This document shows positions 615 to 62,006 of a stretch of DNA of 64,000 nucleotides, one piece after another; position 1 is the stretch's first letter, and each line of letters begins with the position of its first letter. The notes beneath the pieces are model-generated. The model was given only the letters and a program-made list of their open reading frames with translations. It had not been told where the DNA came from and did not search any database. The DNA is from an uncultured Bacillaceae bacterium (GTDB lineage: Bacteria > Bacillota > Bacilli > Bacillales > Cytobacillaceae). The translations under genes and the position numbers were made by a program. Location of the stretch: NCBI GenBank assembly GCA_963787345.1, contig CAWBCW010000036.1, forward strand, positions 36,608 to 100,607. The letters run 5' to 3'.

Positions 615-641
615 TTATTTACACCTCGCATCTGAGAAGCA

Positions 642-1718
642 TTAAAATGTGTATTTAATGCTTTGTTTTTCTTCGTGTCTTTCGATCGCCAATTGGACAA
701 GACGCTCTATTAATTCTGGATACTTCAGGCCGCTTTGATTCCAAAGAAGCGGGAACATGCTGATTGGTGTAAATCCAGGCATCGTATTCACTTCATTGAT
801 ATATGCTTTTCCTTCACTCGTTAAAAAGAAATCCGCCCTTACTAGTCCTGAGCAATCAAGCGATTTAAAAGCCGTGACAGCCATTTCGCAAAGACCGGCA
901 TATTCTGTTTCACTGATTTCAGCTGGAATAATTAGATCCGTATTGTCATCTTCATACTTCGCTTTATAGTCATAGAAATCTTTCTTCGGTACAATTTCAC
1001 CCGCAACCGAGCATTTCGGATCATCATTTCCAAGGACAGCAATCTCCACTTCCCTAGCAATTACGCCTTCTTCAATAATCACTTTACGGTCGAATTGGAA
1101 AGCTTCCAAGAAAGCTTGATCGAGTTCATCACGATCTGAACACTTACTAATGCCCACACTTGAACCAAGATTAGCTGGTTTTACAAAACATGGATACCCC
1201 AATTCTTTTTCAATTTCATCATAAATGTTTTGTTTACTTTGCTCCCACTCATATTTAATGCAGGAAACGTAGTTGACTTGATCCAGACCTGCTTGAGCAA
1301 AGATGTTTTTCATAATTACTTTATCCATTCCAGCTGAAGAGGCAAGAACTCCGTTGCCTACATACGGAATATTTAATAACTCAAGGAACCCTTGAACCGT
1401 TCCATCTTCTCCATTTGTGCCGTGAAGAAGCGGGAAAATGACATCTAGCGTCTCTTTTCCATCTTCTGTTTGGAATAAAGTTGAAGATAAAGATGCCCCT
1501 TGATGCGCATTCGTTCTTTCAAACTTTAATTGGTCTACAGATTGGACATCGTCTTCTAATTGCGAGCCTTTAATCCACTCACCTGTTTCTGTAATATAGA
1601 TCGGATATATTTCAAATTTTTTATAATCTAACGCTTGGATAACGGCTAATGCTGTTCTTAACGAGACCTGATGTTCCGCCGATTTACCCCCATATAATAA
1701 GCCTAATTTTGTTTTCAT
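642..1718 (-). CDS. ddl: D-alanine--D-alanine ligase
   Basis: [41 protein letters not shown] motifs; likely start MKTKLG after GGAGG. Confidence 0.97.
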
Positions 1719-2144
1719 CGTAAAACCTCCATTTGTCTGTCTTTGCAATCCGCTACTTGTGATGGGTAACGGCCCAACCATCAATCGAGGATTTCATGCC
1801 TCCTTGATAGAAATGTCGTTTCACTCCACATTCATCCATTTTACCATTTTATGAAACAGGATAGGGAATGAATATTGTCCTATATCGGGATGATTTCTTA
1901 CAAAAAAAGAAAGCGCCCACTAAGTCGTTTTCTTCATTCTTAAAGTATGTATTAATATGCCCAATCGAAACCTGTTTGCTTGAATTAATGCTGTAATTCA
2001 CTGTTCAAAGATTAACAGATTAGACAGAACTTTTGTCGTATTCGATATTTTATTCGGACAAGTTTTTCTCCCTCTTGGTGCTGTCCGTATCAAGCACGTT
2101 TTCGGATCAGATCCCTTTACTTCCACTTACTCTATCCAACTCTT

Positions 2145-2798
2145 CTAATCCAACAAACAAGTAGTCCCCTTATCCGAGACATGTCCCATATCCCCTTCAA
2201 GCATGAACTCCATTTCCCCGTGCACGACTTTAACGACCGACAAACTCGTTCCATCAACGGTTGGTTCTGTCCAGAAGTCGTTGATGGGAATTCCTTTAAT
2301 AACTAAGAACAAGGCCTTAATAAACAAGCCATGGGACACTACTAATATATTCCCCGTCAACTTCCTATTCTTCAGCCGCGCAAGAAAATCCTCAGCCCGT
2401 TTATACATATCTATGAAGGTTTCTGCTTCTCCATTCTGATAAAGATGGGGGCTCGTCATAAAACAATCATACTCATCCGGAAACTGCTCTCTAATTTCTG
2501 TCTTTGTCAGCCCTTGCCATGGACCCATATCCATTTCCATAATCCACTCATCTCTTTGATACAATAAACCTCTGCTTTCAAGAATAAGTTCAGTCGTTTC
2601 GAGAGCTCGCTCACTCGGACTTGAAATCACCCCGGCAAACTCAACAGTCTTCAACCGCTCCCCTAGTAACCGCGCATACTTCCTGCCTTTTTCTGTTAAA
2701 GAAGAGTTGTATCTACCCTGAATGCGATCTTCTTGATTCCACTCCGTTTCCCCATGGCGAACAATATATAAACTTAGCACTCTGATTCCCCCCATCAA
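2145..2798 (-). CDS. Histidine phosphatase (phosphoglycerate mutase) family protein
   Basis: RHGETEWN, SSPSERA and VVSHG motifs. Confidence 0.9.
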   Translation of the reverse strand: MMGGIRVLSLYIVRHGETEWNQEDRIQGRYNSSLTEKGRKYARLLGERLKTVEFAGVISSPSERALETTELILESRGLLYQRDEWIMEMDMGPWQGLTKTEIREQFPDEYDCFMTSPHLYQNGEAETFIDMYKRAEDFLARLKNRKLTGNILVVSHGLFIKALFLVIKGIPINDFWTEPTVDGTSLSVVKVVHGEMEFMLEGDMGHVSDKGTTCLLD

Positions 2799-2985
2799 AT
2801 TTGCCTGCCGAATTTGCGCCCGGATACAATACCTGAGCTCGCTCGATGAAATATCGTAAAAAATCGCAAGGCTCGCCGGAGGCTTAACTTTATTCAGCTA
2901 AGGTTGAACACCCACTGAATTATAAATCCTTTTAGCATTTATCCCTTACCTTTTGAAGTCGAGCACTTCTCCTGAATGAAGTTAA
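2794..2985. repeat. Structured interspersed repeat (MITE/REP-like), copy 1
   Basis: ATCAAATT(T/C)GCC...GAATTTGCG at the left end; internal AACTTTATTCAG...CTGAATGAAGTT inverted repeat; similar to copies at 3716, 39100 and 59579. Confidence 0.85.
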
Positions 2986-3701
2986 AAGGCAATTTCAATA
3001 GAATGATAAAGCTTGCCGCATTTTTCAATAAGAAAAGACTCTAGTTCAGGATGAAAAGCGATTAAAACACAGGTAGATGGACCGGCTGTTTTCATAATAT
3101 CCACTTCAGTCCTCACGTTATCCCCAATGAGTGAATCATCATCCACCATATTTTTCAACTCATGAAGAATTCCTTTTGAGCCAACTGGCAACAACACGAC
3201 ACCATCCAGCTGACTTAGCTCATAAAAAAGGGAAAGAGGCACCACTTCTTCCGGTGTTTCCAGTACCTCATTCCCGACTAACGGGGAGCCAACGACGGCG
3301 AGTTTTATTCCATCCAAGGAAATAGCTCGTTCCCGATAAGACGCCTTTCGTTTCCCCATAACAACGATTCCAAGCGCCGATTGCATTAATGGAAAGTTAC
3401 TCTCGGTGCTCCCTGTAATCGACACTTCTCTTAAGCCAATCTCTGCGCAGCCTTTTTCAATCCCTGCCATTATCGAACTCCATGCATCATCATGACAAAA
3501 ATTCTGAATCACAACCGAAAATGGGCTCGCCCCTGCGGCCAAACACTCCATCACCGCCACTTTGAAACCGTAGTAGGAAACGACTTCATATGGAGTTTTA
3601 ACCGCGTCATGCTCTTTCAAGCCAATTCCTCCGCTATTATCTGCGGCAACGACAAGCATTTCTTGTTCATTAAAGGGTACAAGTGCAACGTCCCGTTTCA
3701 T
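2982..3701 (-). CDS. cblS: Alpha-ribazole kinase CblS-like (AIR synthase-related fold)
   Basis: VAADNSGGIG, GSTESNF and LPVGSKGI motifs; adjacent to an ECF S-component at the end of the cob operon. Confidence 0.75.
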   Translation of the reverse strand: MKRDVALVPFNEQEMLVVAADNSGGIGLKEHDAVKTPYEVVSYYGFKVAVMECLAAGASPFSVVIQNFCHDDAWSSIMAGIEKGCAEIGLREVSITGSTESNFPLMQSALGIVVMGKRKASYRERAISLDGIKLAVVGSPLVGNEVLETPEEVVPLSLFYELSQLDGVVLLPVGSKGILHELKNMVDDDSLIGDNVRTEVDIMKTAGPSTCVLIAFHPELESFLIEKCGKLYHSIEIAF

Positions 3702-3715
3702 CGAATCGCTCCTTA

Positions 3716-3908
3716 ATCAAATTCGCCCCGCCGAATTTGCGCCCGGATTTTGATCGAGCTCACTCGATCAAATACCGTAAAAAATTGCAAGGCTCGCCAG
3801 GGCTTAACTTCATTCAACCGAGTTTTAAACCCCTGCTGAATCAGAAAGTATTTTTTTACATTCATCTCTCACTTTTAGAGGCGGGAGACTTCTGCTGAAT
3901 GAAGTTGA
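3716..3908. repeat. Structured interspersed repeat, copy 2
   Basis: ATCAAATTCGCC...GAATTTGCGCCCGGATTT...AACTTCATTCA...TGAATGAAGTT. Confidence 0.85.
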
Positions 3909-4377
3909 ATTTACCTTCGTAAAAACGAATTAACCTTGGTAATAAAACAAGGGCAATCACGGTATTAAACACAGCACCAATGAATAAAGATGGCATCACA
4001 CCGATATAAAATCCGGTTCCCAATAAAAATAAAAACGGCAATGGGGCTACCACCGTATTTCCAACGATAAAAAGGATGCTGGCTAGTAATCGATGCCCTT
4101 TTTTATACAGAATCGCAAACAACCATACGAGAACAGCCATTTCAAATCCTACGATAAAGTGTAACGGTCCCATTGGCATCCCTCCAATAAGAGCGGATAA
4201 TAAATGACCGATAAAAGCGATCACTGCACCAGGAAGACTTCCCAACATTACACTCCCGATTAATGCAGGAATCATGTCTAATGCAACACTTGACACAACA
4301 GCGGGTATTTTAATCGATGCACCCGCTACACATAAGGCGATAAATAAACTAATTAGACTGATTTTCTTTATGTTCAC
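3862..4377 (-). CDS. cblT: ECF transporter S component, alpha-ribazole transporter CblT-like
   Basis: About 170 aa, hydrophobic; SVALDMIPALIG and GHLLSALIGGMPMGPLH; GTG start at 4377 after AAAGGA; paired with cblS. Confidence 0.75.
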   Translation of the reverse strand: MNIKKISLISLFIALCVAGASIKIPAVVSSVALDMIPALIGSVMLGSLPGAVIAFIGHLLSALIGGMPMGPLHFIVGFEMAVLVWLFAILYKKGHRLLASILFIVGNTVVAPLPFLFLLGTGFYIGVMPSLFIGAVFNTVIALVLLPRLIRFYEGKFNFIQQKSPASKSER

Positions 4378-4963
4378 TTTCTGTTCGTTCCTTTCTTGTA
4401 CGATCTCGAAAAACCGGAGCACTGCGAATATACTCCACATCCTTTACTCCTTGGCGGAAATTCACAACCCTTGCTGTAGCAAAGAAGTAATCTGACAGTC
4501 GATTTAAGTATTGCAGGGGTAAAACAGATAAGTTGGTATCCTCTTTCATCAATGTCACGACTAATCTCTCAGCTCTTCTTGTGACCGTTCGTGCAATATG
4601 AAGCGTTGCTGCTGCAGGACTTCCCCCTGGTAAAATAAACCGTTCTAATGCTGGTGCTTCCGCAGTATACACATCAATTCGATTTTCTAAATACACAATG
4701 GCCTCCTCCGTCAATTTTGGCGTATGTTTTTTCGTAACAGTGGCCAAGTCACCGCCACAATCAAAAAGTTCATGTTGGATTTTTTCCAAATCCTCTAATA
4801 CATCGCGAAAAAGGCCTGGTTGTAACTGAGTTACTGCCTGACCGACGAAGCCATTTGCTTCGTCTACCGTTCCATAAGCATCAACACGAATATGATCTTT
4901 ATCAACTCTCCCCCCGATAATACCTGTTTGACCTTTATCTCCAGTACGTGTATAAATTTTCAT
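4349..4963 (-). CDS. pduO: PduO-type ATP:cob(I)alamin adenosyltransferase
   Basis: MKIYTRTGDKG, AYGTVDE, FILPGG, RRAER and YLNRLSDYFF motifs. Confidence 0.95.
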   Translation of the reverse strand: MKIYTRTGDKGQTGIIGGRVDKDHIRVDAYGTVDEANGFVGQAVTQLQPGLFRDVLEDLEKIQHELFDCGGDLATVTKKHTPKLTEEAIVYLENRIDVYTAEAPALERFILPGGSPAAATLHIARTVTRRAERLVVTLMKEDTNLSVLPLQYLNRLSDYFFATARVVNFRQGVKDVEYIRSAPVFRDRTRKERTESEHKENQSN

Positions 4964-4977
4964 CCCATTTGCCCCTT

Positions 4978-5415
4978 TCATTTCAATTGTTTATTTAATC
5001 CATACCAAATGACATCAACCCGCTCACAGCTTGATGCCGCAGCTTGGAAAACTCGACCACATACATCCCGCCACTCGCGATCCTCCGACTTTAGCGGAAC
5101 AATTCCCTTTGTAATATCGGTTCCTATTAAAATAACACTTCTTTTCTCATCAGTGCCTTCCCAATTTTCCAATTGTCTCAAGAGGTCATGCCACTTTTCC
5201 TGAACTTCATCACCACTGCTCTCTTGTAACCATTCCTTAACCCACTGTTCAATTCCTTCTAAGACGATATAATTTGTTATCATCCGTTCGAGTTCAATGG
5301 GAATTTGATCATGGTTATAGGCACTAAACCATCTGCAATTCCCTTCGGTTAATCGATTATATGCCTTTACCCATTGTGATTTTCCGTTAAAAGCACCGCC
5401 CGTAATAAATTGCAT
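4978..5415 (-). CDS. Short CobU/CobP-like P-loop protein (second paralog)
   Basis: ITGGAFNGKS P-loop and GIVP...R.WRD..GR motif, but only 145 aa. Confidence 0.75.
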   Translation of the reverse strand: MQFITGGAFNGKSQWVKAYNRLTEGNCRWFSAYNHDQIPIELERMITNYIVLEGIEQWVKEWLQESSGDEVQEKWHDLLRQLENWEGTDEKRSVILIGTDITKGIVPLKSEDREWRDVCGRVFQAAASSCERVDVIWYGLNKQLK

Positions 5416-5990
5416 CGTTCACCCCTCCTGAAAGCCTCTCTACTAGACCAAACGAGTTCAAATCCATTGCCATGCGGAACATGCCATTCCCAAAAGTCCT
5501 TTTCAATCGGTGCCAGTTTCGATAATAAATAGCGAAGTACACCTCCGTGAGTGACAATAGCCAGTGAATCAACCTCATCATCCCTCACCAACTTTGAGAC
5601 CTTTTCCCAGCCTTTTTCGATCCGCTGTGAAAAATCATAGTAGGATTCTACTCCAGGAACATTTGCTTCAAACTGACCACCAATCCACTCCTCATAGTGC
5701 GGGTCACCCGCCAACTCTTCATACCGCTTTCCTTCCCATGGGCCAAAGTTCATTTCGCGCAGTTCTAGAAAAGGAATGAAGTCTTTTCTTGGAAATAAAA
5801 TTTCAGCTGTTTGTAAACAACGGATTAAATCGCTTGTGACCACGACTTCATATGGATTTGGATTTATTGCTGACAAACTTTCTCTCACATCTTCACAGAT
5901 CGGTGCATCCGTCCACCCGATATAGGCCCTCTGTTTATTTAGTTCGGTTAACCCATGACGAAATAAAGCCACAACCACACCATCATCCAT
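5367..5990 (-). CDS. cobC: Alpha-ribazole/adenosylcobalamin phosphatase CobC (histidine phosphatase)
   Basis: [26 protein letters not shown] and VTHGG; follows cobS. Confidence 0.85.
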   Translation of the reverse strand: MDDGVVVALFRHGLTELNKQRAYIGWTDAPICEDVRESLSAINPNPYEVVVTSDLIRCLQTAEILFPRKDFIPFLELREMNFGPWEGKRYEELAGDPHYEEWIGGQFEANVPGVESYYDFSQRIEKGWEKVSKLVRDDEVDSLAIVTHGGVLRYLLSKLAPIEKDFWEWHVPHGNGFELVWSSREAFRRGERCNLLRAVLLTENHNG

Positions 5991-6739
5991 AATAAGCATT
6001 CCACCCCTTCCACTGATGCCCCTAATACATCACCCGTGATACCGCCAAACCAGCGAACGATTTTTCTTGAGATCACGATTAGAAATAATAAAGCTGCCAG
6101 AACTAATAGTAAAAAGCCACTCATCGCTTTTGGCCATATCAAAAAAATGGCCAAGCCCATTATGACTACATAGATCGGATAAATCCATAAGGTTCTCCTT
6201 GACGCCGCTTCTTTAAACAAAGCACCAAGACCCTCTTCTTTGGCAGATTTCACATTCAACAATAAAATCCCCATCACGATTTTTCCTAAAAACGGAATCA
6301 AGATAATAAATAGAAGGGTATACTTACTAGACCGTAAAACAATTTCATATATAAATAGAAACTTTGCACTCAAAAGCACAATAACAGATAGAACGCCAAA
6401 GGCACCGATTCTTGAATCTGTCATAATTTCGATTCGTCTCTTTTTATCCCGATAAGAGAAATAGGCATCACTGCAGTCCATCCACCCATCAAGATGAATT
6501 CCACCCGTGATGATAATCAGTGCAAACCAGATAAAAAACGCGATAGCTAATGGTGAAAAGGGTGTCCATTGTAACAAAACATAAAGAATCACACTATAAA
6601 GGATTCCTTGTAAAAATCCTAGCACTGGAAACATTTTAATCGCCTTATTGATATGCGGACGATCCATCGGCACTTCATAAGGAATTGGAATGCTCGTGAA
6701 AAATTGAATACACATCACGAGACCTTTGATCATCTTCAT
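5948..6739 (-). CDS. cobS: Adenosylcobinamide-GDP ribazoletransferase (cobalamin synthase)
   Basis: [31 protein letters not shown] and [10 protein letters not shown]. Confidence 0.95.
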
Positions 6740-7608
6740 GACTTAAGGTTCTCCCAATCCCAAATCATCCGCTTGATTCTATCCCAATCCAAATGAGCTC
6801 CCATCTTCGCAGCTAGTGAATCATAGCGATTTCCCTTAAACCCTTCCGCATCAACGATATCCCTATTGTCTTTATTCCGAAACTCGTCATCGGAAAGGGA
6901 ATCCTCAGGGTCGATCATATGGTTATGAATATAAGGCAAGACACCAACAACGGGAACCCCTGTCTTGTCCTCAATCCACTCCACCCCATCTTTAAAAAGA
7001 CTGGAGTCCCCACGAAATTTATTGATGATAATGCCCTTCACTCTCCTGCGTTCCTCCATCGTCATCAATTCTAACGTTCCAACAAGACTGGCAAAAACTC
7101 CGCCTCGATCAATATCCGCCGCTAAAATCACAGGTACATCTGCCATTTCTGCAACCTTCATATTCACAAGCTCTCGATCCTTTAGATTCATTTCAACCGG
7201 ACTCCCGGCACCTTCCAAAACCAAAAGCTCATACTCTTTTTCAAGTTGTTCGATTGCCTTTCCAATAACCTCTAGCCCTTTCTCATAAAAGGATTCCCGA
7301 TATCCTCTGCCAGACAAAGATTCTACTCGTTTCCCTAATAAAACTACCTCTGAAACCTGGTCTGATTGGGGCTTTAATAAAATCGGGCTCATCCAAACTG
7401 TCGCTTCCGTTCGTGCTGCTTCCGCTTGAATCCCTTGGGCAAGCCCAATTTCCGAACCATCCGCCGTCAAATAAATGTGGTTGGACATATTTTGCGACTT
7501 AAACGGAGCTACCTTAAGCCCCTCATCGGAAAATAGCCGGCATAAAGCTGTGACAATTAAACTTTTTCCAACATCTGAAGCCGTGCCTTGAATCATTACA
7601 CCTTTCAT
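6736..7608 (-). CDS. cobQ: Cobyric acid synthase, synthetase domain only (glutaminase domain absent)
   Basis: [40 protein letters not shown] and INKFRGD; 290 aa. Confidence 0.9.
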
Positions 7609-8186
7609 CCTGCATCTCCTTTCATTACGATCGGAATCCCCGCCTCCACTAAATAAGCAAGACGTGCTACAGCGACTATTTTTTGATGCAAGTTTCCTAG
7701 CAAAGAGCTGTAAACAAAGACAAGATCGTTGGAATGAATCGGCTCATTAACAACTTCATTGCTTACAATAATAAAAGTCTCTACCTTCCGACTAATGGAA
7801 ATGATCCCGTTCCATATTTTTTCAAAGAGTTCACTTAAATAAGAATGATCTTGCCAACCATCCTCTTCAAAAAACAATTCATTATTCAGCCATGTCGTTA
7901 AACAATCAAGCAAAACAACATCTTTTCCACTAAAATTCCCAGCTAGGTCACCAATGGAAGTCGGCTTTTCCCACGTATTCCAAATAAGACTACTTTGTAA
8001 GCGATCATCTTGATGAAGACGAATTCTTTGTTTCATTTCCTCATCGGAAGGCTGCATCGCAGCAATGTAATGAAGTTGGCCAAAAGACCCTGTCTTCGAA
8101 TATTCTCCAGCTAGTTCCTCAGCAAAGCTGCTCTTCCCACTGCGAACCCCACCTGTTATGAAGATGATGGATGAATGCTGCGCCAT
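7605..8186 (-). CDS. cobU: Adenosylcobinamide kinase / cobinamide-phosphate guanylyltransferase
   Basis: [30 protein letters not shown] and VSNEV. Confidence 0.92.
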
Positions 8187-9241
8187 TCTTGCATCGCCTC
8201 CAATAGCTGCTTATTTTCCTCCGTTGTCCGAACGGCAAATCTCAGCCATCTCCCTTCGAGGCCAGGGAAATTGAACGTATGCCGAGGAACGATTCCTTTA
8301 GCTAATAAAAACTGGAACAACGGGAACTGATCATCTAGCCCGTGATCTTTTAATAAATAAAAATTTACCTTCGAATCGGTCACTAGGAACCCATTCTTTT
8401 TATAAAAGGAAAAGAGATCTTCACGTTGAGAGTCAATAAATTGAATGGTATGTTGGACATATTCTTCTTCCTCTAAACATAGTTCCCCTATCTTCATCGC
8501 CATGCTATTCACACTCCAATGGGATTGGAAGGTTGCAAGTGTCTCAATGATTTCGAGACTTGCAATTGCATACCCAAGGCGAAGTCCAGGAATCGCATAG
8601 ACTTTAGTCATCGACCGGAGTAGTAGTAAATTTGCATTGTCACGAAGCAAAGGAACTAATGATTCGTAATCTTGTACGAAGTCATAAAAGGCTTCATCAA
8701 CAATAAGATAGCACCCCTGTTTCTGACATTCTTTTAAAATACGCTCGATTAGTCCTCTATTAAAATACAAACCCGTTGGATTATTGGGATTACAGAAAAA
8801 TACGGCGTCTATATCTGTCACCATATCTGAAAAAGAATCAATGTCCACTTCCCAATCCTTTGATAGATGAAAATAGGTAACCTCACATCCATTCACTTTG
8901 CAGACTCTTTCATATTCAGAAAAGGCAGGCTGAACAACCATCACCTTTTTCCCGGCTAACCATCTCCCGATCAGACTGATGAGTTCAGAGCCGCCGTTTC
9001 CAATTAAAATTTGCGTTTCATCAATTTCCTCATGATGAGCAAGCTTCTGTTTCAATAAAGTACTGTGTGGATCCGGATAAGTTTCGATCCCTTGGAGTAA
9101 TTTTCCCCAGTGTTCCTTCACAGAGGCTGGGGGTCCAAATGGATTAATATTCGCACTAAAATCAATGATCTTATCAGGCTGCTCCAGTCCAGCTGCTTGA
9201 TATAAATAATGTGGATTAGATCCATGTGAGGGCCAAGTCAA
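8156..9241 (-). CDS. cobD: L-threonine-O-3-phosphate decarboxylase
   Basis: HG.N, DFSANINP, GNGGSELI, CNPNNPTG, DEAF and SMTKVYAIPGLRLGY; cob operon context. Confidence 0.9.
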   Translation of the reverse strand: MTWPSHGSNPHYLYQAAGLEQPDKIIDFSANINPFGPPASVKEHWGKLLQGIETYPDPHSTLLKQKLAHHEEIDETQILIGNGGSELISLIGRWLAGKKVMVVQPAFSEYERVCKVNGCEVTYFHLSKDWEVDIDSFSDMVTDIDAVFFCNPNNPTGLYFNRGLIERILKECQKQGCYLIVDEAFYDFVQDYESLVPLLRDNANLLLLRSMTKVYAIPGLRLGYAIASLEIIETLATFQSHWSVNSMAMKIGELCLEEEEYVQHTIQFIDSQREDLFSFYKKNGFLVTDSKVNFYLLKDHGLDDQFPLFQFLLAKGIVPRHTFNFPGLEGRWLRFAVRTTEENKQLLEAMQEWRSIHPSSS

Positions 9242-10181
9242 TCAACACACCTCCAAGCCATAAGAATAGTAAAAACATAAGTACCGTTCGCGTTAAGATT
9301 CCATTCATTTTAAGAATATGATTCTTATTGAGAGAACTCACAGGATCCCCCATTAACGCCCGGTTTGACACAATTCCTTTATATGTATTCATACCTCCAA
9401 GTTGAACGCCTAAAAGACCCGCAGCACTTGCTTCACACCAGCCGCTATTTGGGCTGGGATGTTTTTTCGCATCCCGAAATAAGATCTCCCAAGCCTGTTT
9501 CCGATTACCATCAAAAGGACGATTTGATAACAGCATCATAAACCCAGTTAATCGGCTTGGAATTAAATTCACGACATCATCAAGCCGTGCCGAAGCCCAG
9601 CCAAAGTCCGAATAGCGATCATTCTTGTACCCAACCATTGAATCGCAAGTATTGATCGCCCGGTATAGAAGAGCCAACGGGGCTCCCCCTATCCACGCCC
9701 AAAATATCGGAGCTGTGACCCCATCACTCGAATTTTCAGCAACCGTTTCAACGGTCCCCCGAACAATTTCACCTTCAGCTAAATGTTCTGTATCTCTGCC
9801 GACAATATAAGATAGTTTAAGGCGAGCATACCCGATATCCCCCTTTTCCAATGGAGTATAAACGTCCATCGCTGCGTCTTTTAAACTCTTATGGGCGATT
9901 GTTGTTGAAATAAGGATACTCTCTACAACTAGACCTACTAAAAAATGAACCTGATAAGCAGCCACAATAATCAAATAGGAAAGTAATAAGACAGAAGCCA
10001 ATACGACTGAAATCATCATGACCCCTTTCCATTTCCGGTTAGAACCATGATTCCATTTTTTATCAAGGGTAGAAATAAGCGATCCTATCCATTTGACCGG
10101 GTGCGGCCAGGCTGGAGGGTCACCGATCAACCGATCGATTAGAAAAGCAAGCGTAATCGCTAATAGATGTCCAATCATCAT
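9216..10181 (-). CDS. cbiB: Adenosylcobinamide-phosphate synthase
   Basis: GDP...HPV, IVGRDT, ETVAENSSDG, YRAINTCDSMVGY and HPSPNSGW. Confidence 0.95.
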   Translation of the reverse strand: MMIGHLLAITLAFLIDRLIGDPPAWPHPVKWIGSLISTLDKKWNHGSNRKWKGVMMISVVLASVLLLSYLIIVAAYQVHFLVGLVVESILISTTIAHKSLKDAAMDVYTPLEKGDIGYARLKLSYIVGRDTEHLAEGEIVRGTVETVAENSSDGVTAPIFWAWIGGAPLALLYRAINTCDSMVGYKNDRYSDFGWASARLDDVVNLIPSRLTGFMMLLSNRPFDGNRKQAWEILFRDAKKHPSPNSGWCEASAAGLLGVQLGGMNTYKGIVSNRALMGDPVSSLNKNHILKMNGILTRTVLMFLLFLWLGGVLIDLALTWI

Positions 10182-11656
10182 AACCCTTCTTTTCTCCGCT
10201 TACTTTTCTGTACAGCTTCTTTTGTACATTCGTAAACCCCTTTTCCGATTAGACTCCCTAAAGGAGTGATCGTACCAGCAAACTCAAAGGATTTTCCCTT
10301 TTGGGCGGCTGCAATAAGGATGCTATCTGTAGATGTTCCCGTTGCAATCGTCCCAGTTATTGGATCTAAAATCTGCAAATCCTGCAGGACCTTTACCTTT
10401 GCCTCTGTCGACGTCATAATACATTGAATGAAAGCTTCTTCAGTTAAATTCCCCTCTACAAACACCCATGTATTAATCGTGCCAGGCTGCGGGTTATCAA
10501 AGCTTCGTTCATAACCTTTCGCTGCATCGACCGCATTCCCTACCCCAGCTGTAACTACAATGAGGATGGAGCAGTCGTCTTCCTCATAAACTCTTGATAC
10601 GACATCCTCCGTTACAACTGCTGTCATCATTCCAACCGTTTGTGATGGATCAAAGCCATTTTCTCTTAAAAAGTTTGCCATTTCCTCACGATGGTTGCTG
10701 CAATTATAATCTTTATCCACATGGCGGTTAACAAAAGTATCATGCCAGCCTGTTCCCGATCCGATCACTCCTGAAGACATCGTTCGAAGCGGGCTTGGTG
10801 TTTTCAAGACAATATATTCGGATGTAATGTTTAGTTCGGAATCGGTTACTTTTTCATCTTTTCTTAAAAAGGTAGATTCCGGAAGAAGAACCATTTGCGG
10901 CGCTGGTACCTTTGGATGCGGATGTTTCTCAATTTTAGTATGATAAACTTCCTCAATGATTTCCTGTTTCAATACTTCATTTGGTGTATTATATCGTTTG
11001 ACTTTTCCATCCTGAAGAAGCAGTAAACGATCACAGTATAAACCAGCCAAATTTAAATCATGAAAAATCGATACAACCGTCAATGACTTTTCCCTTGTCC
11101 ACTTTTTCAACAAATCAAGCAATTCCTTTTGATAAGACAAATCAAGGTGGTTCGTTGGTTCATCGAGAAGGAGAATTTCCGGTTCCTGCGCGAGCGCCTG
11201 AGCAAGGAAAGCACGTTGTCTTTCCCCGCCGGAAAGCAGCCCAATCGGATGATCTTGGAGGGAAGAGACTCCAGTCCAATTCATGACCTCATTAACAATC
11301 GTCTCGTCCTTCTCACTCCATTCTTTGAAAAGCCCCTTTTGATGGGCATACCTGCCTAAAGAAACTGTTTCTTTAACACTGTAAGAAAAGGATTCCGAGC
11401 TATGCTGAGAAAGAACCGCGATTATTCTAGCAAGCTGCTTGGTCGAGTACTTTTTTAAAGGCTCCCCATTTAAAAGAATCTCCCCGTCCCTAAAAGGCTG
11501 CACCCCGCTCATCATTTTTAATAAGGTCGTTTTTCCGCTTCCATTTGGGCCGATAATCCCAAAAAGTTCTCCTTTATGGATCTCAATTGAAACGTCTGAA
11601 AGAATATTTTCCTCTCCATATCCCCCATGTAAATGTTGGATTTCAAGCATGTTCAT
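10178..11656 (-). CDS. BtuD-type ABC ATPase fused to CbiZ adenosylcobinamide amidohydrolase
   Basis: N-terminal GPNGSGKT, LSGGERQR and LLLDEPT; C-terminal GMMTAV, VTAGVGNA, GTINT and ATGTSTD. Confidence 0.85.
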   Translation of the reverse strand: MNMLEIQHLHGGYGEENILSDVSIEIHKGELFGIIGPNGSGKTTLLKMMSGVQPFRDGEILLNGEPLKKYSTKQLARIIAVLSQHSSESFSYSVKETVSLGRYAHQKGLFKEWSEKDETIVNEVMNWTGVSSLQDHPIGLLSGGERQRAFLAQALAQEPEILLLDEPTNHLDLSYQKELLDLLKKWTREKSLTVVSIFHDLNLAGLYCDRLLLLQDGKVKRYNTPNEVLKQEIIEEVYHTKIEKHPHPKVPAPQMVLLPESTFLRKDEKVTDSELNITSEYIVLKTPSPLRTMSSGVIGSGTGWHDTFVNRHVDKDYNCSNHREEMANFLRENGFDPSQTVGMMTAVVTEDVVSRVYEEDDCSILIVVTAGVGNAVDAAKGYERSFDNPQPGTINTWVFVEGNLTEEAFIQCIMTSTEAKVKVLQDLQILDPITGTIATGTSTDSILIAAAQKGKSFEFAGTITPLGSLIGKGVYECTKEAVQKSKRRKEGL

Positions 11657-12711
11657 CTCCTTCTTTCCTTCTTTTTCCGGGCAATCAATATCGCCGCAAA
11701 TACGGGTGCGCCGACCAACGAAGTAATTACTCCAATTGGCAGCTCAGTCGGTGAAATAATTGTTCTTGCGATTAAATCAGCTAACATCAAGAATCCACTT
11801 CCTGTTAGCAGAGACAAAGGCAATAAATGTTTATGGTCAGGCCCCCATAAAATTCGAGTTAAGTGGGGGATGACTAAACCGACGAAACCAATTGTACCCG
11901 AAACAGCTACAGCCGCGCCTGTTAAAATCGAGCCTGCTGTTAAGACAAACATTTTGCGCCTTTGAACATTGACCCCTAAATGCTGGGCTCGCTCCTCTCC
12001 AAATGACATGGCATTTAGTTCATTGACATTCACCAATAAAAGAATAGAACCAATAATGAAGAATGGCAGAATGATTTTGATATATGACCAGCCTCTCATC
12101 GACACACTGCCAAGCAGCCAACTAATAATATGCCGAAGTTCATCACCAGTTAATGCAATCATTAACGAAATAAAAGCCCCTAAAAATGAACTGAAAATAA
12201 TTCCTGTTAAAATAATCGTTTCTACCTTCATCGAACGTTCGATTTTTTGGGCAAAGAAGAGAACCAAAAGAATCGTAAAAAACGAAAAGAGGATGCTTAA
12301 AAATGGCAATGTAAAAGCTCCGATAATAGGCAGCGAAATATTGAAAAAGAGGGTTAACACTGCACCTACTGATGCACCTGATGAAATACCAAGCGTATAA
12401 GGGTCAGCGAGAGGATTTCTTAATAAACCTTGAAAGGCGGCTCCTGCAACCGCAAGAGACGCCCCTACTAAACCTGCCAATATGACTCGCGGCAGCCGAA
12501 TATCCATCACAATATTTATGTACATCGGATCAATATGACTCGTGGAATAACGGAAAACTACGGCACCTAGAATTTGAACAATATCAAAAACCGGTACACG
12601 AACCGTACCGATTGAGATCGAAATCAGCATAGAGCCTAGAAAAAAGGCTCCTGCTAATAGATATGCAAACCACTTATTCGTTAAAAAGATCTGGGTATAC
12701 CGCTTTTGCAA
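11653..12711 (-). CDS. btuC: Corrinoid ABC transporter permease (FecCD/BtuC)
   Basis: IRLPRVILA, QGLLRNPLADP and IGFVGLVIPH; downstream of the B12 riboswitch. Confidence 0.9.
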   Translation of the reverse strand: MQKRYTQIFLTNKWFAYLLAGAFFLGSMLISISIGTVRVPVFDIVQILGAVVFRYSTSHIDPMYINIVMDIRLPRVILAGLVGASLAVAGAAFQGLLRNPLADPYTLGISSGASVGAVLTLFFNISLPIIGAFTLPFLSILFSFFTILLVLFFAQKIERSMKVETIILTGIIFSSFLGAFISLMIALTGDELRHIISWLLGSVSMRGWSYIKIILPFFIIGSILLLVNVNELNAMSFGEERAQHLGVNVQRRKMFVLTAGSILTGAAVAVSGTIGFVGLVIPHLTRILWGPDHKHLLPLSLLTGSGFLMLADLIARTIISPTELPIGVITSLVGAPVFAAILIARKKKERRR

Positions 12712-13639
12712 GTTCCTCTACTCCTTCAACAAGACGAGGGCCAGGACGGGTTACTGTGTCTGAATTAACATCAACCACTTGCTCATTTTTAATTGCATTC
12801 ATATCCTGCCAGCCTTCACGACTTAAGACTTGTTGTACTGCATTTTCAACATAGTCACCATATGTTAGCACGATCACATCAGGGTTGGCTGCGATCACAG
12901 CTTCTTGATCCAATTGTGGCCAACCAGATTCTGTCACTATATTTTCTGCATTAACCATTGTTAGCATTTCATCCATAATCGAATCTTTTCCTACCGTAAA
13001 GTGAGCTGGGTCAATTTCAATATATACGTTTTTCTTATCCTTTATTTCCGCAACTTTTTCTTGAATTTCTTCTACCTTTGTTCTCATGTTTGAAACGAGC
13101 TTTTCTGCTTCTTCTGCTGCACCTGTTGCTTTCCCAATCACTTCAATTGAATCATACACCTCAGAGAAAGTATCCGCATCCTGAACTGTAAAAACGGTAA
13201 TCCCAGCACCTCTTAATTGTTGAATTCCTTCTTCCGATAAGCCCATCGCTGATCCATGTCCAAGAACAAGATCCGGCTGTAATGAAATAATTTTCTCCAC
13301 ATTAAATTCCATGTCGCCTACCGTTTCTTTCCCCTTTACTTCCTCTGGATACGTATCATTATCGGTAACTCCCACAATCTTATCGCCAAGTCCTAACTCA
13401 AAAGCGATCTCCGTATTACTCGGTATCAACGAAACAATCCGCTCCGGCTTGCTCTCAATAACAACTTCTTCACCCGTTGCGTCTTTTATCGTAACCGGAA
13501 AACTAGTTGATTCCGGTTGCTCCGTTCCTGCCCCTTGATTGTTATCGTTCTTTTCTGTTTCATTATTTGCTGTACCGCATCCGACTAAAACTCCAATCGA
13601 AAGCAACAGGATAAACAATAATGCATGAACCTTTTTCAA
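12674..13639 (-). CDS. btuF: Corrinoid ABC transporter binding lipoprotein
   Basis: Lipobox LVGC, PERIVSL.PSNTE and RPGPR; first gene after the riboswitch. Confidence 0.9.
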   Translation of the reverse strand: MKKVHALLFILLLSIGVLVGCGTANNETEKNDNNQGAGTEQPESTSFPVTIKDATGEEVVIESKPERIVSLIPSNTEIAFELGLGDKIVGVTDNDTYPEEVKGKETVGDMEFNVEKIISLQPDLVLGHGSAMGLSEEGIQQLRGAGITVFTVQDADTFSEVYDSIEVIGKATGAAEEAEKLVSNMRTKVEEIQEKVAEIKDKKNVYIEIDPAHFTVGKDSIMDEMLTMVNAENIVTESGWPQLDQEAVIAANPDVIVLTYGDYVENAVQQVLSREGWQDMNAIKNEQVVDVNSDTVTRPGPRLVEGVEELAKAVYPDLFNE

Positions 13640-13741
13640 ATTGATCTCCCCTTTTTCTAATTATTAATTACTTACTTTTATACCTTTATTAAAATGGCTT
13701 TAATGCTAGTGTTGCCTCAAAATTAGCCGTTAACAGAGCCA

Positions 13742-13778: not shown

Positions 13779-13849
13779 AGAAAGACCGTTGTTTACTAGC
13801 CGTTCATACACCTTCCTATCCTCGTAGGTTTGTGTTGGTGCAGAAAAAC

Positions 13850-14040
13850 TAGGCAGGTCTCCTGGCTCTTGGTCATCGTTCCCCGCTCCTTCCCGTACAG
13901 ATTGTACAGTGGATGTGCAGGTTACTCGCAATTACAGTGGCGGGACCGCGTTGGATTTTCACCAACTTCCCTATTAAGTCTTAAAAAAACAGAAAAGCCG
14001 AAATGCTAAAGATCTTTCTTCTTTTCCAAAGACACCTAAT
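13850..14040 (-). ncRNA. Cobalamin riboswitch
   Basis: Minus strand reads AGGGAAGTTGGTGAAAATCCAACGCGGTCCCGCCACTGTAA...CCACTG...GGGAAGG...GAGCCAGGAGACCTGCC. Confidence 0.95.
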
Positions 14041-23794: not shown

Positions 23795-23825
23795 TTTGAC
23801 AATTTTGTGAACTTTCTGAATAATA
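23795..23825 (+). promoter_or_regulatory. SigA-like promoter overlapped by a TGACAATTTTGTGAAC motif
   Basis: TTGACA-N17-AATAAT; the same 16-mer recurs near 24210. Confidence 0.55.
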
Positions 23826-24136: not shown

Positions 24137-24255
24137 AATGCCTTTTGTTCTTCATCTATCAGACCACCGACATAACCTTCAAAGAATTTTTTCATTATCC
24201 ATCATATTTTTGACAATTTTGTGAACACTCTTGAATAGTATATTCTATAGGGGGA

Positions 24256-24514: not shown

Positions 24515-24796
24515 TTACATATCCCAAAGGAAAATCAATAGTGTACCTAAAATTGTAACTAAAGCCGCAAACATCATAAAAGCAACTTTACCGAAAATAA
24601 ATCCTTTATCCTCAGTTTCGCCAGCATGCATGAATACAACAAATTGTAGAAATGCCTGAACAAAAGCAGTAATAAGTAAAATCGCCATACCTGTATTAAA
24701 AGACAGGTCGAAGAAATATACCGATAAAGCAATAACAGTCAAAAGGAGTGAAGCAACATAACCATTTATCTGTTTGGCTGGAAATAATTCTTTCAT
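24515..24796 (-). CDS. qoxD: Quinol oxidase aa3-600 subunit IV
   Basis: MKELFP, GYVASLLLT and QFVVFMH. Confidence 0.9.
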   Translation of the reverse strand: MKELFPAKQINGYVASLLLTVIALSVYFFDLSFNTGMAILLITAFVQAFLQFVVFMHAGETEDKGFIFGKVAFMMFAALVTILGTLLIFLWDM

Positions 24797-58454: not shown

Positions 58455-58631
58455 AAGAAAAACTTATAAGCTAATGTAACTTCGGACAGGATGGAACGGA
58501 ATGAGGGTAGAGTGATAGAGTCTGAAGGCGGAGCAATAGGGAAGAAACCTCGAAATTCACTAGAATCCTAAGTTACTGTTTGATTAATAACTCACTTTCC
58601 TCAATTCAATCAAACGTTTGATTGAAAAAGG

Positions 58632-58661
58632 GAACCCGCCTATCATAAATGAGGCGGGTTC
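58632..58661. terminator. Terminator between convergent pdxR and pdxS
   Basis: GAACCCGCCT/AGGCGGGTTC. Confidence 0.75.
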
Positions 58662-58683
58662 TTTCATACTATTTATAAGCTCC

Positions 58684-59556
58684 TTACCAGCCACGGTCCT
58701 GCATGCGGTTTTCAGGGGCGATTGATGAAATTTCAAGACCTTTCATCGGTTCACCAAGACCTTTTGAAAGCTCGGCAATTAATTTATAATCTTGATAATG
58801 CGTTGTAGCTTCGACAATTGCTCTCGCAAATTTAGCTGGATTTTCAGATTTAAAAATACCTGAGCCAACAAAGACCCCATCTGCACCTAATTGCATCATA
58901 AGTGCCGCATCAGCAGGTGTCGCTACTCCCCCAGCAGCAAAGTTTACGACCGGCAGCTTGCCATTTTCTTTGATTTGTAAAAGAACTTCATACGGGGCAC
59001 CAAGAAGTTTTGCTTCCGTCATGATTTCATCTTCACTCATATGCACCAATTTACGAACTTGAGCATTCACTTTACGGATATGCCTAACTGCTTCAACAAT
59101 ATTACCTGTTCCAGGCTCGCCTTTTGTACGAAGCATTGATGTACCTTCACCAATCCGACGAGCGGCTTCACCTAGATCACGACATCCACAAACAAACGGA
59201 ACGGTAAATTCCTTTTTATTTAAATGGAACTCTTCATCAGCTGGTGTTAACACTTCAGATTCATCAAGATAGTCGACTCCAAGAGCTTCAAGGACTCTAG
59301 CTTCAACGATATGACCAATTCTTGCTTTTGCCATAACTGGTATGCTAACGGCATTCATAACCTCTTCAATAATGGAGATATCCGCCATTCTAGCGACTCC
59401 GCCAGCTTTACGTATATCAGAAGGAACACGTTCTAACGCCATAACTGCAACAGCCCCTGCTTCCTCGGCAATTTTGGCTTGCTCAGCATTGATGACGTCC
59501 ATAATTACGCCACCTTTTTGAATTTCAACGATTCCACGGTTTTCTCTTGTTGTCAT
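58684..59556 (-). CDS. pdxS: PLP synthase subunit PdxS
   Basis: [35 protein letters not shown] and [11 protein letters not shown]. Confidence 0.96.
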
Positions 59557-59578
59557 TTGTAACTCCCCCTTATATTCT

Positions 59579-59768
59579 ATCAAATTCGCCTCCGAGAATT
59601 TGCGCTCAGATTTTATCGAGCGAGCTCGATAAACTTCCTCTAAAAATCTGCGGCATCCGCCGGAGGCTTTAACTGCATTCAGCTAATGTCAACTCCCACG
59701 AAGTCGATAAACATTTGCATTTATCTCACAACTTAGAGAATCAGTTGACTCTTGCTGAAGGAAGTTAA
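59579..59768. repeat. Structured interspersed repeat, copy 4
   Basis: ATCAAATTCGCC...GAATTTGCG...ATCGAGCGAGCTCGAT...AACTGCATTCAG...CTGAAGGAAGTTAA. Confidence 0.85.
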
Positions 59769-59793
59769 AGTATTAAAAAGAATATAACAAGAT

Positions 59794-59840
59794 TATGGAT
59801 TTTTTAAAATATCCATAATTGTACAAAAAATCAGTCCATA
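59794..59840. promoter_or_regulatory. Putative PdxR operator (three TATGGAT-type motifs)
   Basis: TATGGAT 59794, ATCCATA 59811 and GTCCATA 59834; the same motif pair occurs at 56955 and 56996 upstream of pdxR. Confidence 0.6.
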
Positions 59841-60116
59841 TTTCCCCAAAACAAAATCCCCTTCCAATTAATGAAAGAGGTTATCTCTGATAAACCTTAT
59901 AAAGTCCATTTTTTAATTGCTTCTCGATGTCTTGATCCAACGCCAAATTCCTGCTCATAAATTGTGATCATCCCATCGTAAAAAGCTATCCTTCACATAC
60001 CATATTGCCGTTAAATTGAACCATTTCAATCATCATCAATTAACGAGTTGGTAAAAATAGGATAGCATGGTGACGACAGATACCGAAACAGAAAAGCTCC
60101 CAAAGTAGTCTAAAAA

Positions 60117-60890
60117 TTATTTCGCTTTTTCAAGTTCAGCAAGGAAATTATCGTTTAGGATTTTAATAAAGGTTCCTTTCATTCCTAGTGAACGGGATTC
60201 GATAACACTAGCACTTTCCAGCTTTCTTAATGCGTTCACAATAACAGAACGTGTGATTCCCACGCGGTCAGCAATTTTGGAAGCTACTAGTACACCTTCA
60301 TTGCCATTTAATTCTTCAAAGATATGTTCAACAGCTTCTAATTCACTATAGGAAAGCGAACTAATCGCCATTTGCACAATCGCTTTGCTGCGCGCTTCTT
60401 TTTCCACCTGTTCCGTACGCTCACGCATGATTTCAACCGCAACCACCGTCGCACTATATTCTGTTAACAGTAAATCATCATCATCAAAAGATTGATCTGC
60501 ACGGGATAAAATTAACGTTCCCAATCTTTCACCACCGCCAATAATTGGTACTAAAGTGGTTAAACCTGTTGGAAATACCGTTTTTGTTTCGCCTGGGAAT
60601 GCAGTGTATTCGCTGTTGACATCTGCATTAGCTAATGTCTCTTTAAGCTGTAATAAAATTCCTTTATATCTATCAGTCGCTTGACCAGTTTCTATTACTT
60701 CTCTCATATGATCCGTTTCAATTTGTTGTGCCATTGCATAGCCATGTATATTCCCATCCGTGCTAATAATAAACACATTTGTGTCAATAATCTCACACAA
60801 TAGTTCAGACATTTCCGTGAAGTTTACCGAAGTACCTCTTGTATTTTGCAACATTGAATTAATTTTTCTAACCTTCGTTAATAATTCCAT
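60117..60890 (-). CDS. codY: CodY family regulator, stand-alone paralog
   Basis: [21 protein letters not shown] and [24 protein letters not shown]; not preceded by hslVU. Confidence 0.93.
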
Positions 60891-61193
60891 AATTCTATTG
60901 TTCCTCCCTATATTTAAAGTCGAATTCCGACAACTTTCGTTATATAATTAACATTTAACTGCTAATGTTCTAAAATGTAGAAGTTTTCAAACAGGTATAC
61001 TACTATCATAATGAATATTATACACTTTTCAACAATTTTCTACAATTTGTTACAAAAAGTTTATAATTAGGAGCAAAAGTTTATAATCAAATGACTTTTT
61101 ACTTGCAAAATTTAGAAACTTGAGAATCAAAGATCAAAAGATGCCAGGCACCTTCTAGAAAAACTGGAAGGTACCTGGCACCCTTGTGTTTCG

Positions 61194-62006
61194 TTATTTT
61201 ACAACTTGCCCTACTGCCTTTAATACTTCTATTCTGCTCATCTTTTCTTTGCCTTCCATCAGAGCTTTAAGCGTTCCGTGTGCCAGTACCAATGGGATTT
61301 TACAGAATTTAATAATGCTATTTGTTTGCAGGTCCTTTATATAAAGGTCTGCCATCTCAAGATTCCTTCGCGCATAGGCGAACATCTCCTCTAAACCCCA
61401 GCCTTCAGGGAAGAAGCAGACGCCTCGCGTTTCGTCTTCCTTATAATTGCGGAGCATATTGACCGCTTGCAAGCCTCGGCCAAACGCAACCGCCAAATTT
61501 TCATCTGTTTCCGTATCATCATGCCATTTCCAAATGTCACTAAGCATGACACCAACTAATCCTGCTACATAGTAAGTATAATCATCTAAATCCTCTTCCG
61601 TTTTAATGACCCAGTCTTTTTCAACCCACTTCGCCATCCCTTTTGCCATCTTCGAAGTGGCTGCCAATACACTATCCACGACTCCAGGCGGGCAAACTTG
61701 AATCCAATCATTCAGTTTTAAGGTTACCGTTGGAAGAACAGACCGATAAGGCTCAAACAATTTTGAGAAATCCCCATGAGTAGATTGCTGAAGGTTTTGG
61801 TGGATGGAGAGTAATAAGTGACTTTTATCATTTGACGGAAGCTCGGGGTGGTCTTCAATCTCGTCGATTGCTCTCATACATAAATAGGCAGATGCCACCG
61901 CTTCCTGCAATCCTTTTCCTAAATAGGTAATCGGAATATAGAAAGTCCGGCTTGTCTCCTTTAACATCTGTCTTGCTTCTTTATTAATAAAATTTGCTTC
62001 ACTCAC
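61194..62006 (-). CDS. Squalene/phytoene synthase family protein (YisP-like)
   Basis: TSRTFYIPI, MRAIDEIED, YTYYVAGLVG and GLQAVNMLR. Confidence 0.85.
   Translation of the reverse strand: MSEANFINKEARQMLKETSRTFYIPITYLGKGLQEAVASAYLCMRAIDEIEDHPELPSNDKSHLLLSIHQNLQQSTHGDFSKLFEPYRSVLPTVTLKLNDWIQVCPPGVVDSVLAATSKMAKGMAKWVEKDWVIKTEEDLDDYTYYVAGLVGVMLSDIWKWHDDTETDENLAVAFGRGLQAVNMLRNYKEDETRGVCFFPEGWGLEEMFAYARRNLEMADLYIKDLQTNSIIKFCKIPLVLAHGTLKALMEGKEKMSRIEVLKAVGQVVK

Follow-up and report, generated by a model that had tools for sequence, protein, structure and literature searches.

Why should a Bacillaceae genome hold a codY gene that stands apart from the hslVU operon, and does such a gene encode the only CodY of its cell, a duplicate in decay or a second regulator? 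CodY is regarded as a master regulator, present in single copy, by which the pools of branched-chain amino acids (BCAA) and GTP are linked to more than 100 genes in low-GC Gram-positive bacteria. The gene in question, here named CodY2, lies in a 64,000-nucleotide stretch of DNA from an uncultured Bacillaceae bacterium (hereafter the window; GenBank assembly GCA_963787345.1, contig CAWBCW010000036.1, positions 36,608 to 100,607), where an earlier note made from the sequence alone had taken it for a stand-alone CodY paralog. What we find is an intact, selected and recurrent family of CodY paralogs encoded outside the hslVU operon, in which the DNA contacts are unchanged, the effector sites are changed and the promoter is distinctive. 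The best explanation is that CodY2 is probably a functional second CodY, derived from an old codY duplication within the Bacillaceae and obeying a differing effector logic.

A recurrent family of stand-alone CodY proteins

The CodY2 open reading frame (Table 1) is colinear with B. subtilis CodY and aligns with it without a gap, 171 of the 257 residues (66.5%) being identical. It is the sensor half of the protein that has diverged most, with identities of 55% in the GAF domain, 76% in the linker and 86% in the winged helix-turn-helix (wHTH) domain. The solved CodYs of B. cereus and B. subtilis match CodY2 over its full length with E values of about 1e-105 (6e-106 for the full-length alignment), and the protein exceeds the cut-offs of both NCBIfam CodY equivalog models (NF003170, 377.7 bits against 255; TIGR02787, 363.6 against 267.2), which do not separate the stand-alone family from canonical CodY. 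These scores, the domain matches and the alignment bear out the earlier reading of the frame as an intact CodY whose DNA-reading part is kept. An exact-protein look-up of the window protein returned no record.

A homologue search across 5.8 billion protein clusters returned 25 clusters (P0001-P0025) of 256-257 aa at 76-100% identity, followed by a step to canonical CodYs of 258-259 aa at no more than 72%. In a neighbour-joining (NJ) tree in which 52 diverse CodYs served as outgroups, the 25 members form the clade of the window protein (bootstrap 0.995) inside an enclosing clade of 34 members (bootstrap 1.00), which also takes in a second group of divergent 259-aa proteins. A profile built from the 34-member clade recovered the same proteins together with P0271 and P0272 before reaching canonical CodYs, which brings the family to about 36 clusters. 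The stand-alone proteins are monophyletic apart from the hslU-linked CodYs (NJ bootstrap 1.00), which is the outcome of the CodY phylogeny that the earlier note had proposed as a check. The second subfamily, found on two soil metagenome contigs (L085 8001-8780 and L086 8001-8780), consists of 259-aa proteins with S-S at positions 44-45, G71, S146, M155 and R158. Family members come almost exclusively from metagenome assemblies, the only named carrier being Niallia sp. Krafla_26 with accession CP130945, and 2 of the best 80 loci from a scan of 185,579 species-representative genomes belong to the family.

The family is maintained by purifying selection. Among five family genes, the pairwise ratio of nonsynonymous to synonymous substitution rates (dN/dS) is 0.07-0.14 overall at dS 0.8-1.7; it reaches 0.10-0.25 in the GAF domain and, one near-identical pair excepted, about 0.03-0.04 in the linker and HTH. 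Identity within the clade is higher than identity within canonical CodYs in every domain, and CodY2 has diverged between loci about as much as its neighbours have. The earlier note had named an unexpressed, decaying gene as an outcome that would speak against it; what we found is a recurrent clade with intact frames in all members and low dN/dS. Full-text literature searches found no description of a codY paralog, and the stand-alone proteins are a small, previously undescribed CodY family of soil bacilli.

Co-occurrence with canonical codY in one carrier genome

In all 79 canonical loci examined, hslV-hslU lies directly upstream of codY. At the window locus and at five related loci hslVU is absent within 10 kb, and the 64-kb window contains no hslU, hslV or second codY, in keeping with the remark in the earlier note that the gene stands alone. 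That note had also asked for an hslU-linked codY elsewhere in the same genome. For another carrier of the paralog, such a gene was found: this is Niallia sp. Krafla_26, whose isolate sequencing run (X25) yields contigs totalling 5.07 Mb, the size of an isolate genome. The paralog locus is complete there on a 68,479-bp contig (depth 40.8, zero differences), and a 39,427-bp contig (depth 44.4) is colinear, at about 80% DNA identity, with the hslV-hslU-codY-flg canonical locus of Cytobacillus gottheilii. With both loci in one isolate run, the Niallia genome carries CodY2 as well as a canonical codY, and paralog status is thus shown for one member of the clade. Because the window locus is syntenic with the Niallia paralog locus, we infer by analogy that the genome from which the window comes likewise has a canonical codY.

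Remodelled effector sites

In B. subtilis CodY, the carboxylate of isoleucine pairs with R61 and the main-chain amide of V100, its amino group contacts the carbonyls of T96 and F98, and its side chain occupies a pocket formed by M62, M65, F71, P72, Y75 and P99 (PMC5314169). In S. aureus CodY (SaCodY), GTP binds between the GAF domain and the linker helix, in a guanine pocket made of V22, F24 and E153 and a phosphate pocket made of S43, R45, K47, H70 and K158; R45, K47 and K158 contact the phosphates, and replacement of five phosphate-pocket residues by alanine lowered GTP affinity (PMC5100569).

Both sites are remodelled in the window protein. At the isoleucine site, M62, Y75, T96, F98, P99 and E101 are kept and residues 61, 65, 71, 72 and 100 are changed; alignment with B. 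subtilis CodY verified all of the substitutions listed earlier (R61H, M65V, F71A, P72T and V100G) and likewise the reading of S43-R44-R45-G46-K47 as S-T-D-G-N. At the GTP site, S43 and the guanine pocket (V22, F24, E153) are kept, and the phosphate pocket consists of T44, D45, N47 and R158. The claim of a rewired ligand pocket stands to this extent; the further suggestion that the protein ignores isoleucine, leucine and valine (ILV) and GTP exceeds the data, because the guanine pocket and most of the backbone features of the isoleucine pocket are retained.

These changes extend across the family. F24, R44, R/K45, K47, R61, M65, F71 and P72 are kept in 79/79 hslU-linked CodYs. Aspartate occupies position 45 in 25/25 members of the window clade, as against arginine or lysine in all 79 hslU-linked proteins. 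The entire stand-alone family has residues other than arginine at positions 44 and 45, I, V, T or L at 65, a residue other than phenylalanine at 71, and the substitutions L155M and K158R; G146S is present in every member except P0039, and E58, R69 and E73 near the isoleucine pocket are replaced in most. L49H, G151A, G228S and others are additional changes of the window clade, 20 of whose 25 members also carry F24Y; the window protein keeps F24. K47N (codon 60750-60752) is confined to the window protein, the other clade members having K or R, which leaves it with the most depleted phosphate pocket of its clade.

GTP should not activate CodY2, because its triphosphate pocket has lost basic residues through R44T, R45D and, in the window protein, K47N, with K158R in addition; speculatively, D45 may take the place of a phosphate between residue 47 and R158. 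In the isoleucine pocket, the arginine that would pair with the carboxylate is lost (R61H) and the cavity is predicted to be widened by F71A, M65V and V100G. B. subtilis CodY variants with R61H, R61K or F71Y are partially active, and the same set of mutants, all of partial activity, includes R61A, R61E, F71A and F98A; such mutants are taken to be forms with lowered affinity for ILV (PMC4608796). Judged from these mutants, the response of CodY2 to BCAA would be weak, shifted in threshold or directed to a different, larger ligand.

DNA-reading residues and dimer interface

The HTH segment including the recognition helix is identical to that of B. subtilis CodY, as had been claimed before. Residues of CodY engaged in DNA contact and cooperativity comprise T213, S215, V216, V218, R222, the L235-G236-M237 wing, L179-S-Y-S182 and R167, and the four-helix bundle of the GAF lobe accounts for about 67% of the dimer interface (PMC10415144). 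None of the listed residues, whether for DNA contact or for contact across dimers, differs in the window protein or varies among the 25 clade members. CodY2 is also identical at the recognition-helix dimer interface and in the cross-dimer contacts made by LSYS and F/Y241. Because the residues for DNA reading and for dimer-dimer cooperativity are all unchanged, the AT-rich CodY boxes bound by canonical CodY are most likely targets of CodY2 too, which would compete or cooperate with the canonical protein there.

The earlier impression that the dimer-interface segments look conserved did not hold for the helices of the GAF lobe and linker. Compared with B. subtilis CodY, helix H1 is identical at 12 of 20 positions and the linker helix at 30 of 43, and the linker helix carries the clade-fixed substitutions A143T, G146S, G151A, L155M, K158R, I162A/V and V171I. 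To judge from the sequence, these linker-helix changes agree no less well with a dimerisation that is retuned or insulated than with the mixing of the two proteins.

Promoter and candidate operator

Both hexamers of the candidate sigma-A promoter of CodY2 are conserved in five orthologous loci (the window and four other distinct clade loci). The -35 hexamer and the spacer are spanned by an array of TTTGTWGAA-type repeats whose units each correspond to the CodY box from its centre through its right half (WGAAAATT). The octamer TTGTAGAA occurs 120-190 nt upstream of 8/8 stand-alone genes as against 1 of 79 canonical codY genes (Fisher p = 1.5e-10). These eight include the genes of the second subfamily, whose locus is a different one and which shares the TTGTAGAA/TTGTTGAA promoter repeats along with a conserved leader block, ACTATTTGAAAAGTYCTATATTTTAGAAGAT. 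A second copy of TTGTAGAA in the window, at 24644, is apparently within coding sequence and was judged to be there by chance. CodY boxes with up to three mismatches number 13 across the window where 14.7 are expected; there is no enrichment, and single matches are not evidence. The 15-mer at 61034-61048 counts as such because of its positional conservation, not the quality of its match.

The array is best regarded as a putative CodY-family operator serving auto- or cross-repression, with Spo0A or another regulator as the alternative; conserved over the promoter and resembling CodY half-sites, the repeats would allow repression by CodY2 itself or by canonical CodY. Between the Shine-Dalgarno sequence and the start codon (60891-60908), the window copy has a 9-nt insertion relative to four orthologous loci; the gap is 12 nt as against 4 nt elsewhere in the clade, a spacing that could lower translation initiation.

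Table 1. Coordinates in the window of CodY2, its domains and effector-site codons, its regulatory signals and its nearest neighbours.
Feature	Position	Strand	Details
CodY2 open reading frame	60117..60890	-	257 aa; ATG start, TAA stop
CodY GAF-like domain and long linker helix	60357..60887	-	aa 2-178; Pfam PF06018, E 3.5e-65
HTH_CodY winged-helix DNA-binding domain	60126..60299	-	aa 198-255; Pfam PF08222, E 1.2e-30
HTH and recognition helix	60213..60284	-	aa 203-226 (24 residues); identical to B. subtilis CodY
Codons 43-47, GTP phosphate-pocket loop	60750..60764	-	S-T-D-G-N (canonical S-R-R-G-K); alignment
Codons 61-72, isoleucine-pocket helix/loop	60675..60710	-	H61, M62, V65, A71, T72; alignment, roles from PMC5314169
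Codon 100	60591..60593	-	Gly (canonical Val, whose amide contacts the ligand carboxylate); alignment, PMC5314169
Shine-Dalgarno sequence	60903..60908	-	GGGAGG, 12 nt before ATG; sequence and alignment
Candidate sigma-A promoter	61005..61032	-	-35 TTGAAA (61032-61027), 16-nt spacer, -10 TATGAT (61010-61005); 10/12 matches
TTTGTWGAA-type repeats, candidate operator	61017..61057	-	TTTGTAAC / ATTGTAGAA / ATTGTTGAA / AGTGTATAA; 10-nt phasing; spans -35 and spacer
CodY-box-like 15-mer	61034..61048	+	3 mismatches to AATTTTCWGAAAATT; right half AGAAAATT exact on the minus strand
Two terminator-like hairpins after the SQS_PSY gene	61135..61184	-	separate the SQS_PSY gene from the CodY2 promoter
Terminator-like hairpin with T-run	59858..59880	-	about 240 nt downstream of the CodY2 stop codon
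SQS_PSY-family upstream neighbour	61194..62006	-	270 aa, squalene/phytoene-synthase fold; Pfam PF00494, E 3.1e-33
pdxS, downstream neighbour	58684..59583	-	lyase subunit of pyridoxal phosphate (PLP) synthase; NCBIfam equivalog, 512 bits

Neighbouring genes

In the window clade the gene order is NMT1/ABC transporter, polysaccharide deacetylase, SQS_PSY gene and CodY2, with pdxS further on; the SQS_PSY and deacetylase genes lie upstream in 6/6 clade loci (the window and five others fetched). In both loci of the second subfamily (L085 and L086), it is an NT5C 5'-nucleotidase gene that precedes the CodY-like gene. The earlier note had placed CodY2 between a YisP-like gene and pdxS. The pdxS assignment holds; the YisP-like label was dropped, YisP not being among the solved relatives of the upstream product, the best of which are eukaryote-type squalene synthases (E about 1e-20). 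That product falls far below every NCBIfam cut-off for squalene, presqualene or phytoene synthases and is a short, 270-aa member of the fold, conserved beside CodY2 in all five related loci. As a clue to the function of CodY2 it was set aside, the adjacency being part of a conserved syntenic block of about 15-20 kb and the second subfamily having other neighbours.

Downstream, four related loci have genes for an MMPL transporter, a TetR regulator and an MscS channel between CodY2 and pdxS (L003 9704-13764); tblastn found none of these in the window, where a 533-nt spacer (59584-60116) stands instead. Within that spacer, at about 59640-59690, metagenome depth rises from about 3 to 39-96 over some 45 nt (…AAATCTGCGGCATCCGCCGGAGGCTTTAACTGCATTCAGC…), and unrelated contigs diverge on either side; this stretch, which has no Rfam match, looks like a short dispersed repeat or a conserved element. 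Rfam and tRNA scans yielded nothing near the CodY2 gene. The glutaminase partner gene pdxT follows pdxS in L003 (14809-15393), L001 (15980-16561) and L002 (16185-16766), and a size-matched open reading frame is present in L006; in the window, pdxS is followed after 229 nt (58455-58683) by a convergent PdxR gene, and tblastn for pdxT was negative across the 64 kb.

Two further observations were made at a distance from CodY2. Tandem genes for small membrane proteins (starts at about 23845 and 24266) have duplicated promoters (TTGACAATTTTGTGAAC…) at 23797-23824 and 24211-24229, and the first of them, in which two CodY boxes of 3 mismatches each are offset by 9 nt as is typical of cooperative CodY sites (AATTTTGTGAACTTTCTGAATAAT), is a candidate CodY target. 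A cobalamin riboswitch (13835-14017, minus strand, 109.7 bits) lies upstream of a long minus-strand run of open reading frames at about 640-13640.

Discussion

The account that we consider probable starts from an old codY duplication within the Bacillaceae, one product of which would have been kept as CodY2 at its own locus and under its own promoter, at least one carrier genome having the canonical hslVU-linked codY as well. By reading CodY boxes with an altered sensor, CodY2 may in effect add a second nutritional readout to part of the CodY regulon.

Several points weigh against this account. The tree is an NJ tree only, and its support for where the family stands relative to canonical Bacillaceae CodYs is just 0.62. 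With V22, F24 and E153 intact, the window protein may bind some nucleotide or nucleoside, and with E101, Y75, F98 and M62 retained an amino-acid ligand is still plausible; R61 is kept in two clade members, the Niallia protein included. The operator-like repeats have a 10-nt phasing where overlapping CodY sites have a 9-nt offset, and their units are one base away from the 0A box of Spo0A (TGTCGAA), so that they may be bound by another regulator. A phasing of 10 bp is also that of tandem 0A boxes; none of the units carries the C of the 0A box, and a CodY-family operator is favoured over Spo0A for that reason. DNA of the window organism was recovered solely from low-depth metagenome runs (X1-X4; about 3x, contigs of 200-600 bp), which contain many different canonical codY fragments, none of them assignable to one genome. 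A run retrieved in the search for RNA data (X26), of unclear library type and with few contigs of 170-220 bp, was not used as evidence.

That the lineage has no CodY but the window gene, an ortholog which left the hslVU operon and then diverged, would agree with a 64-kb window lacking hslU or a further codY and with metagenome runs that give no same-genome assignment; it is nonetheless very unlikely, given that both loci are present in the Niallia isolate on separate contigs of equal depth, that the window locus is syntenic with the Niallia paralog locus, and that all 79 hslU-linked CodYs keep the canonical ligand residues. Almost no credence attaches to a decaying or unexpressed duplicate without function. 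Transcript support was not obtained, X26 having been set aside, and the 12-nt gap before the start codon of the window copy is unusually long, but the frame is intact in every member, dN/dS remains at 0.07-0.14 at dS 0.8-1.7, the promoter hexamers and upstream repeats are conserved, and derived residues such as D45, H49, S146, M155 and R158 do not vary within the window clade.

It is possible, if on the unlikely side, that CodY2 senses a different small molecule and that its widened, less basic GAF pocket (R61H/S, F71A/I/G, M65V/I/T, V100G/S/A) binds a ligand other than ILV. The family-wide nature of the pocket-lining changes, which are under selection, and the replacement of E58, R69 and E73 near the pocket in most members speak for such a sensor; the sequence names no ligand, however, the backbone-contact positions, E101, Y75 and F98 are retained, several family members keep R61, and the conserved neighbours are explained by long-range synteny and offer no functional clue. 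We are more doubtful that CodY2 acts mainly through canonical CodY, in heterodimers or mixed tetramers that retune or poison it, an idea raised by the earlier note: the identical recognition-helix interface, LSYS and F/Y241 make a mixed dimer-of-dimers on overlapping sites plausible (PMC10415144), whereas the four-helix bundle, in which H1 retains 12 of 20 residues, and the linker changes (G146S, L155M) follow the pattern expected of insulated paralogs. A bolder version of the second-CodY account would make CodY2 a sensor of something other than ILV and GTP, with the invariant D45 mimicking a phosphate and locking the GAF-linker junction in a GTP-bound-like state, a new ligand in the pocket, and CodY boxes shared by two proteins that repress each other through the TTGTWGAA repeats. 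We regard this combination as a long shot; if true, it would amount to a CodY circuit with two inputs, to which no model Firmicute is known to offer a parallel.

Under the reading of CodY2 as a functional second CodY, the family is a natural experiment on which residues are free to change while the fold and DNA recognition persist, and it gives a natural context to R61H and F71A, substitutions known from laboratory work. A further question that it poses is how a single set of operators is shared by two regulators whose DNA-contact residues are identical. For annotation, CodY equivalog models call the family 'GTP-sensing' although its phosphate pocket has lost basic residues. The family is rare and belongs to little-studied soil bacilli, which limits its immediate reach; it should be of relevance to CodY researchers and to those concerned with the divergence of regulators after duplication.

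Comparison with known CodY proteins

Canonical Bacillaceae CodY (B. subtilis P39779, PDB 5LOE/5LNH/2B18/2B0L; B. cereus 5EY2) has the same length and GAF-linker-wHTH architecture as CodY2, at 66-67% identity, and its recognition helix, wing and cross-dimer residues are identical. CodY2 differs from it in lying outside the xerC-hslVU-codY operon behind its own promoter with TTGTWGAA repeats, in its phosphate pocket (R44T, R45D, K47N, K158R) and isoleucine pocket (R61H, M65V, F71A, P72T, V100G), and in the fixed changes of its linker helix.

Two kinds of precedent come nearest: on one side streptococci and lactococci, in which the sole CodY is GTP-blind, and on the other single codY genes with laboratory or allelic variants. 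In Lactococcus lactis and Streptococcus pneumoniae, CodY has altered GTP-site residues and responds to BCAA without a response to GTP (PMC5100569). There the sole CodY of the cell carries guanine-pocket changes (F24Y, S43N, E153Q), whereas CodY2 of the window keeps its guanine pocket and is altered in the phosphate pocket; F24Y is common to those proteins and 20 of the 25 members of the window clade. CodY2 further differs from these proteins in its altered isoleucine pocket and in having a canonical counterpart in the genome of at least one carrier. Among the engineered B. subtilis variants R61H, R61K, R61A, F71A and F71Y, two (R61H and F71A) occur naturally in the window protein (PMC4608796); the engineered forms are single laboratory mutations in the only codY of the cell, whereas the changes in CodY2 are combined, fixed in the clade and under purifying selection. 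Natural CodY variants of Clostridioides difficile are reported to be altered in ligand binding and DNA affinity, and are alleles of a single codY, not a separate paralogous family such as that of CodY2 (bioRxiv 10.1101/2025.11.06.687015).

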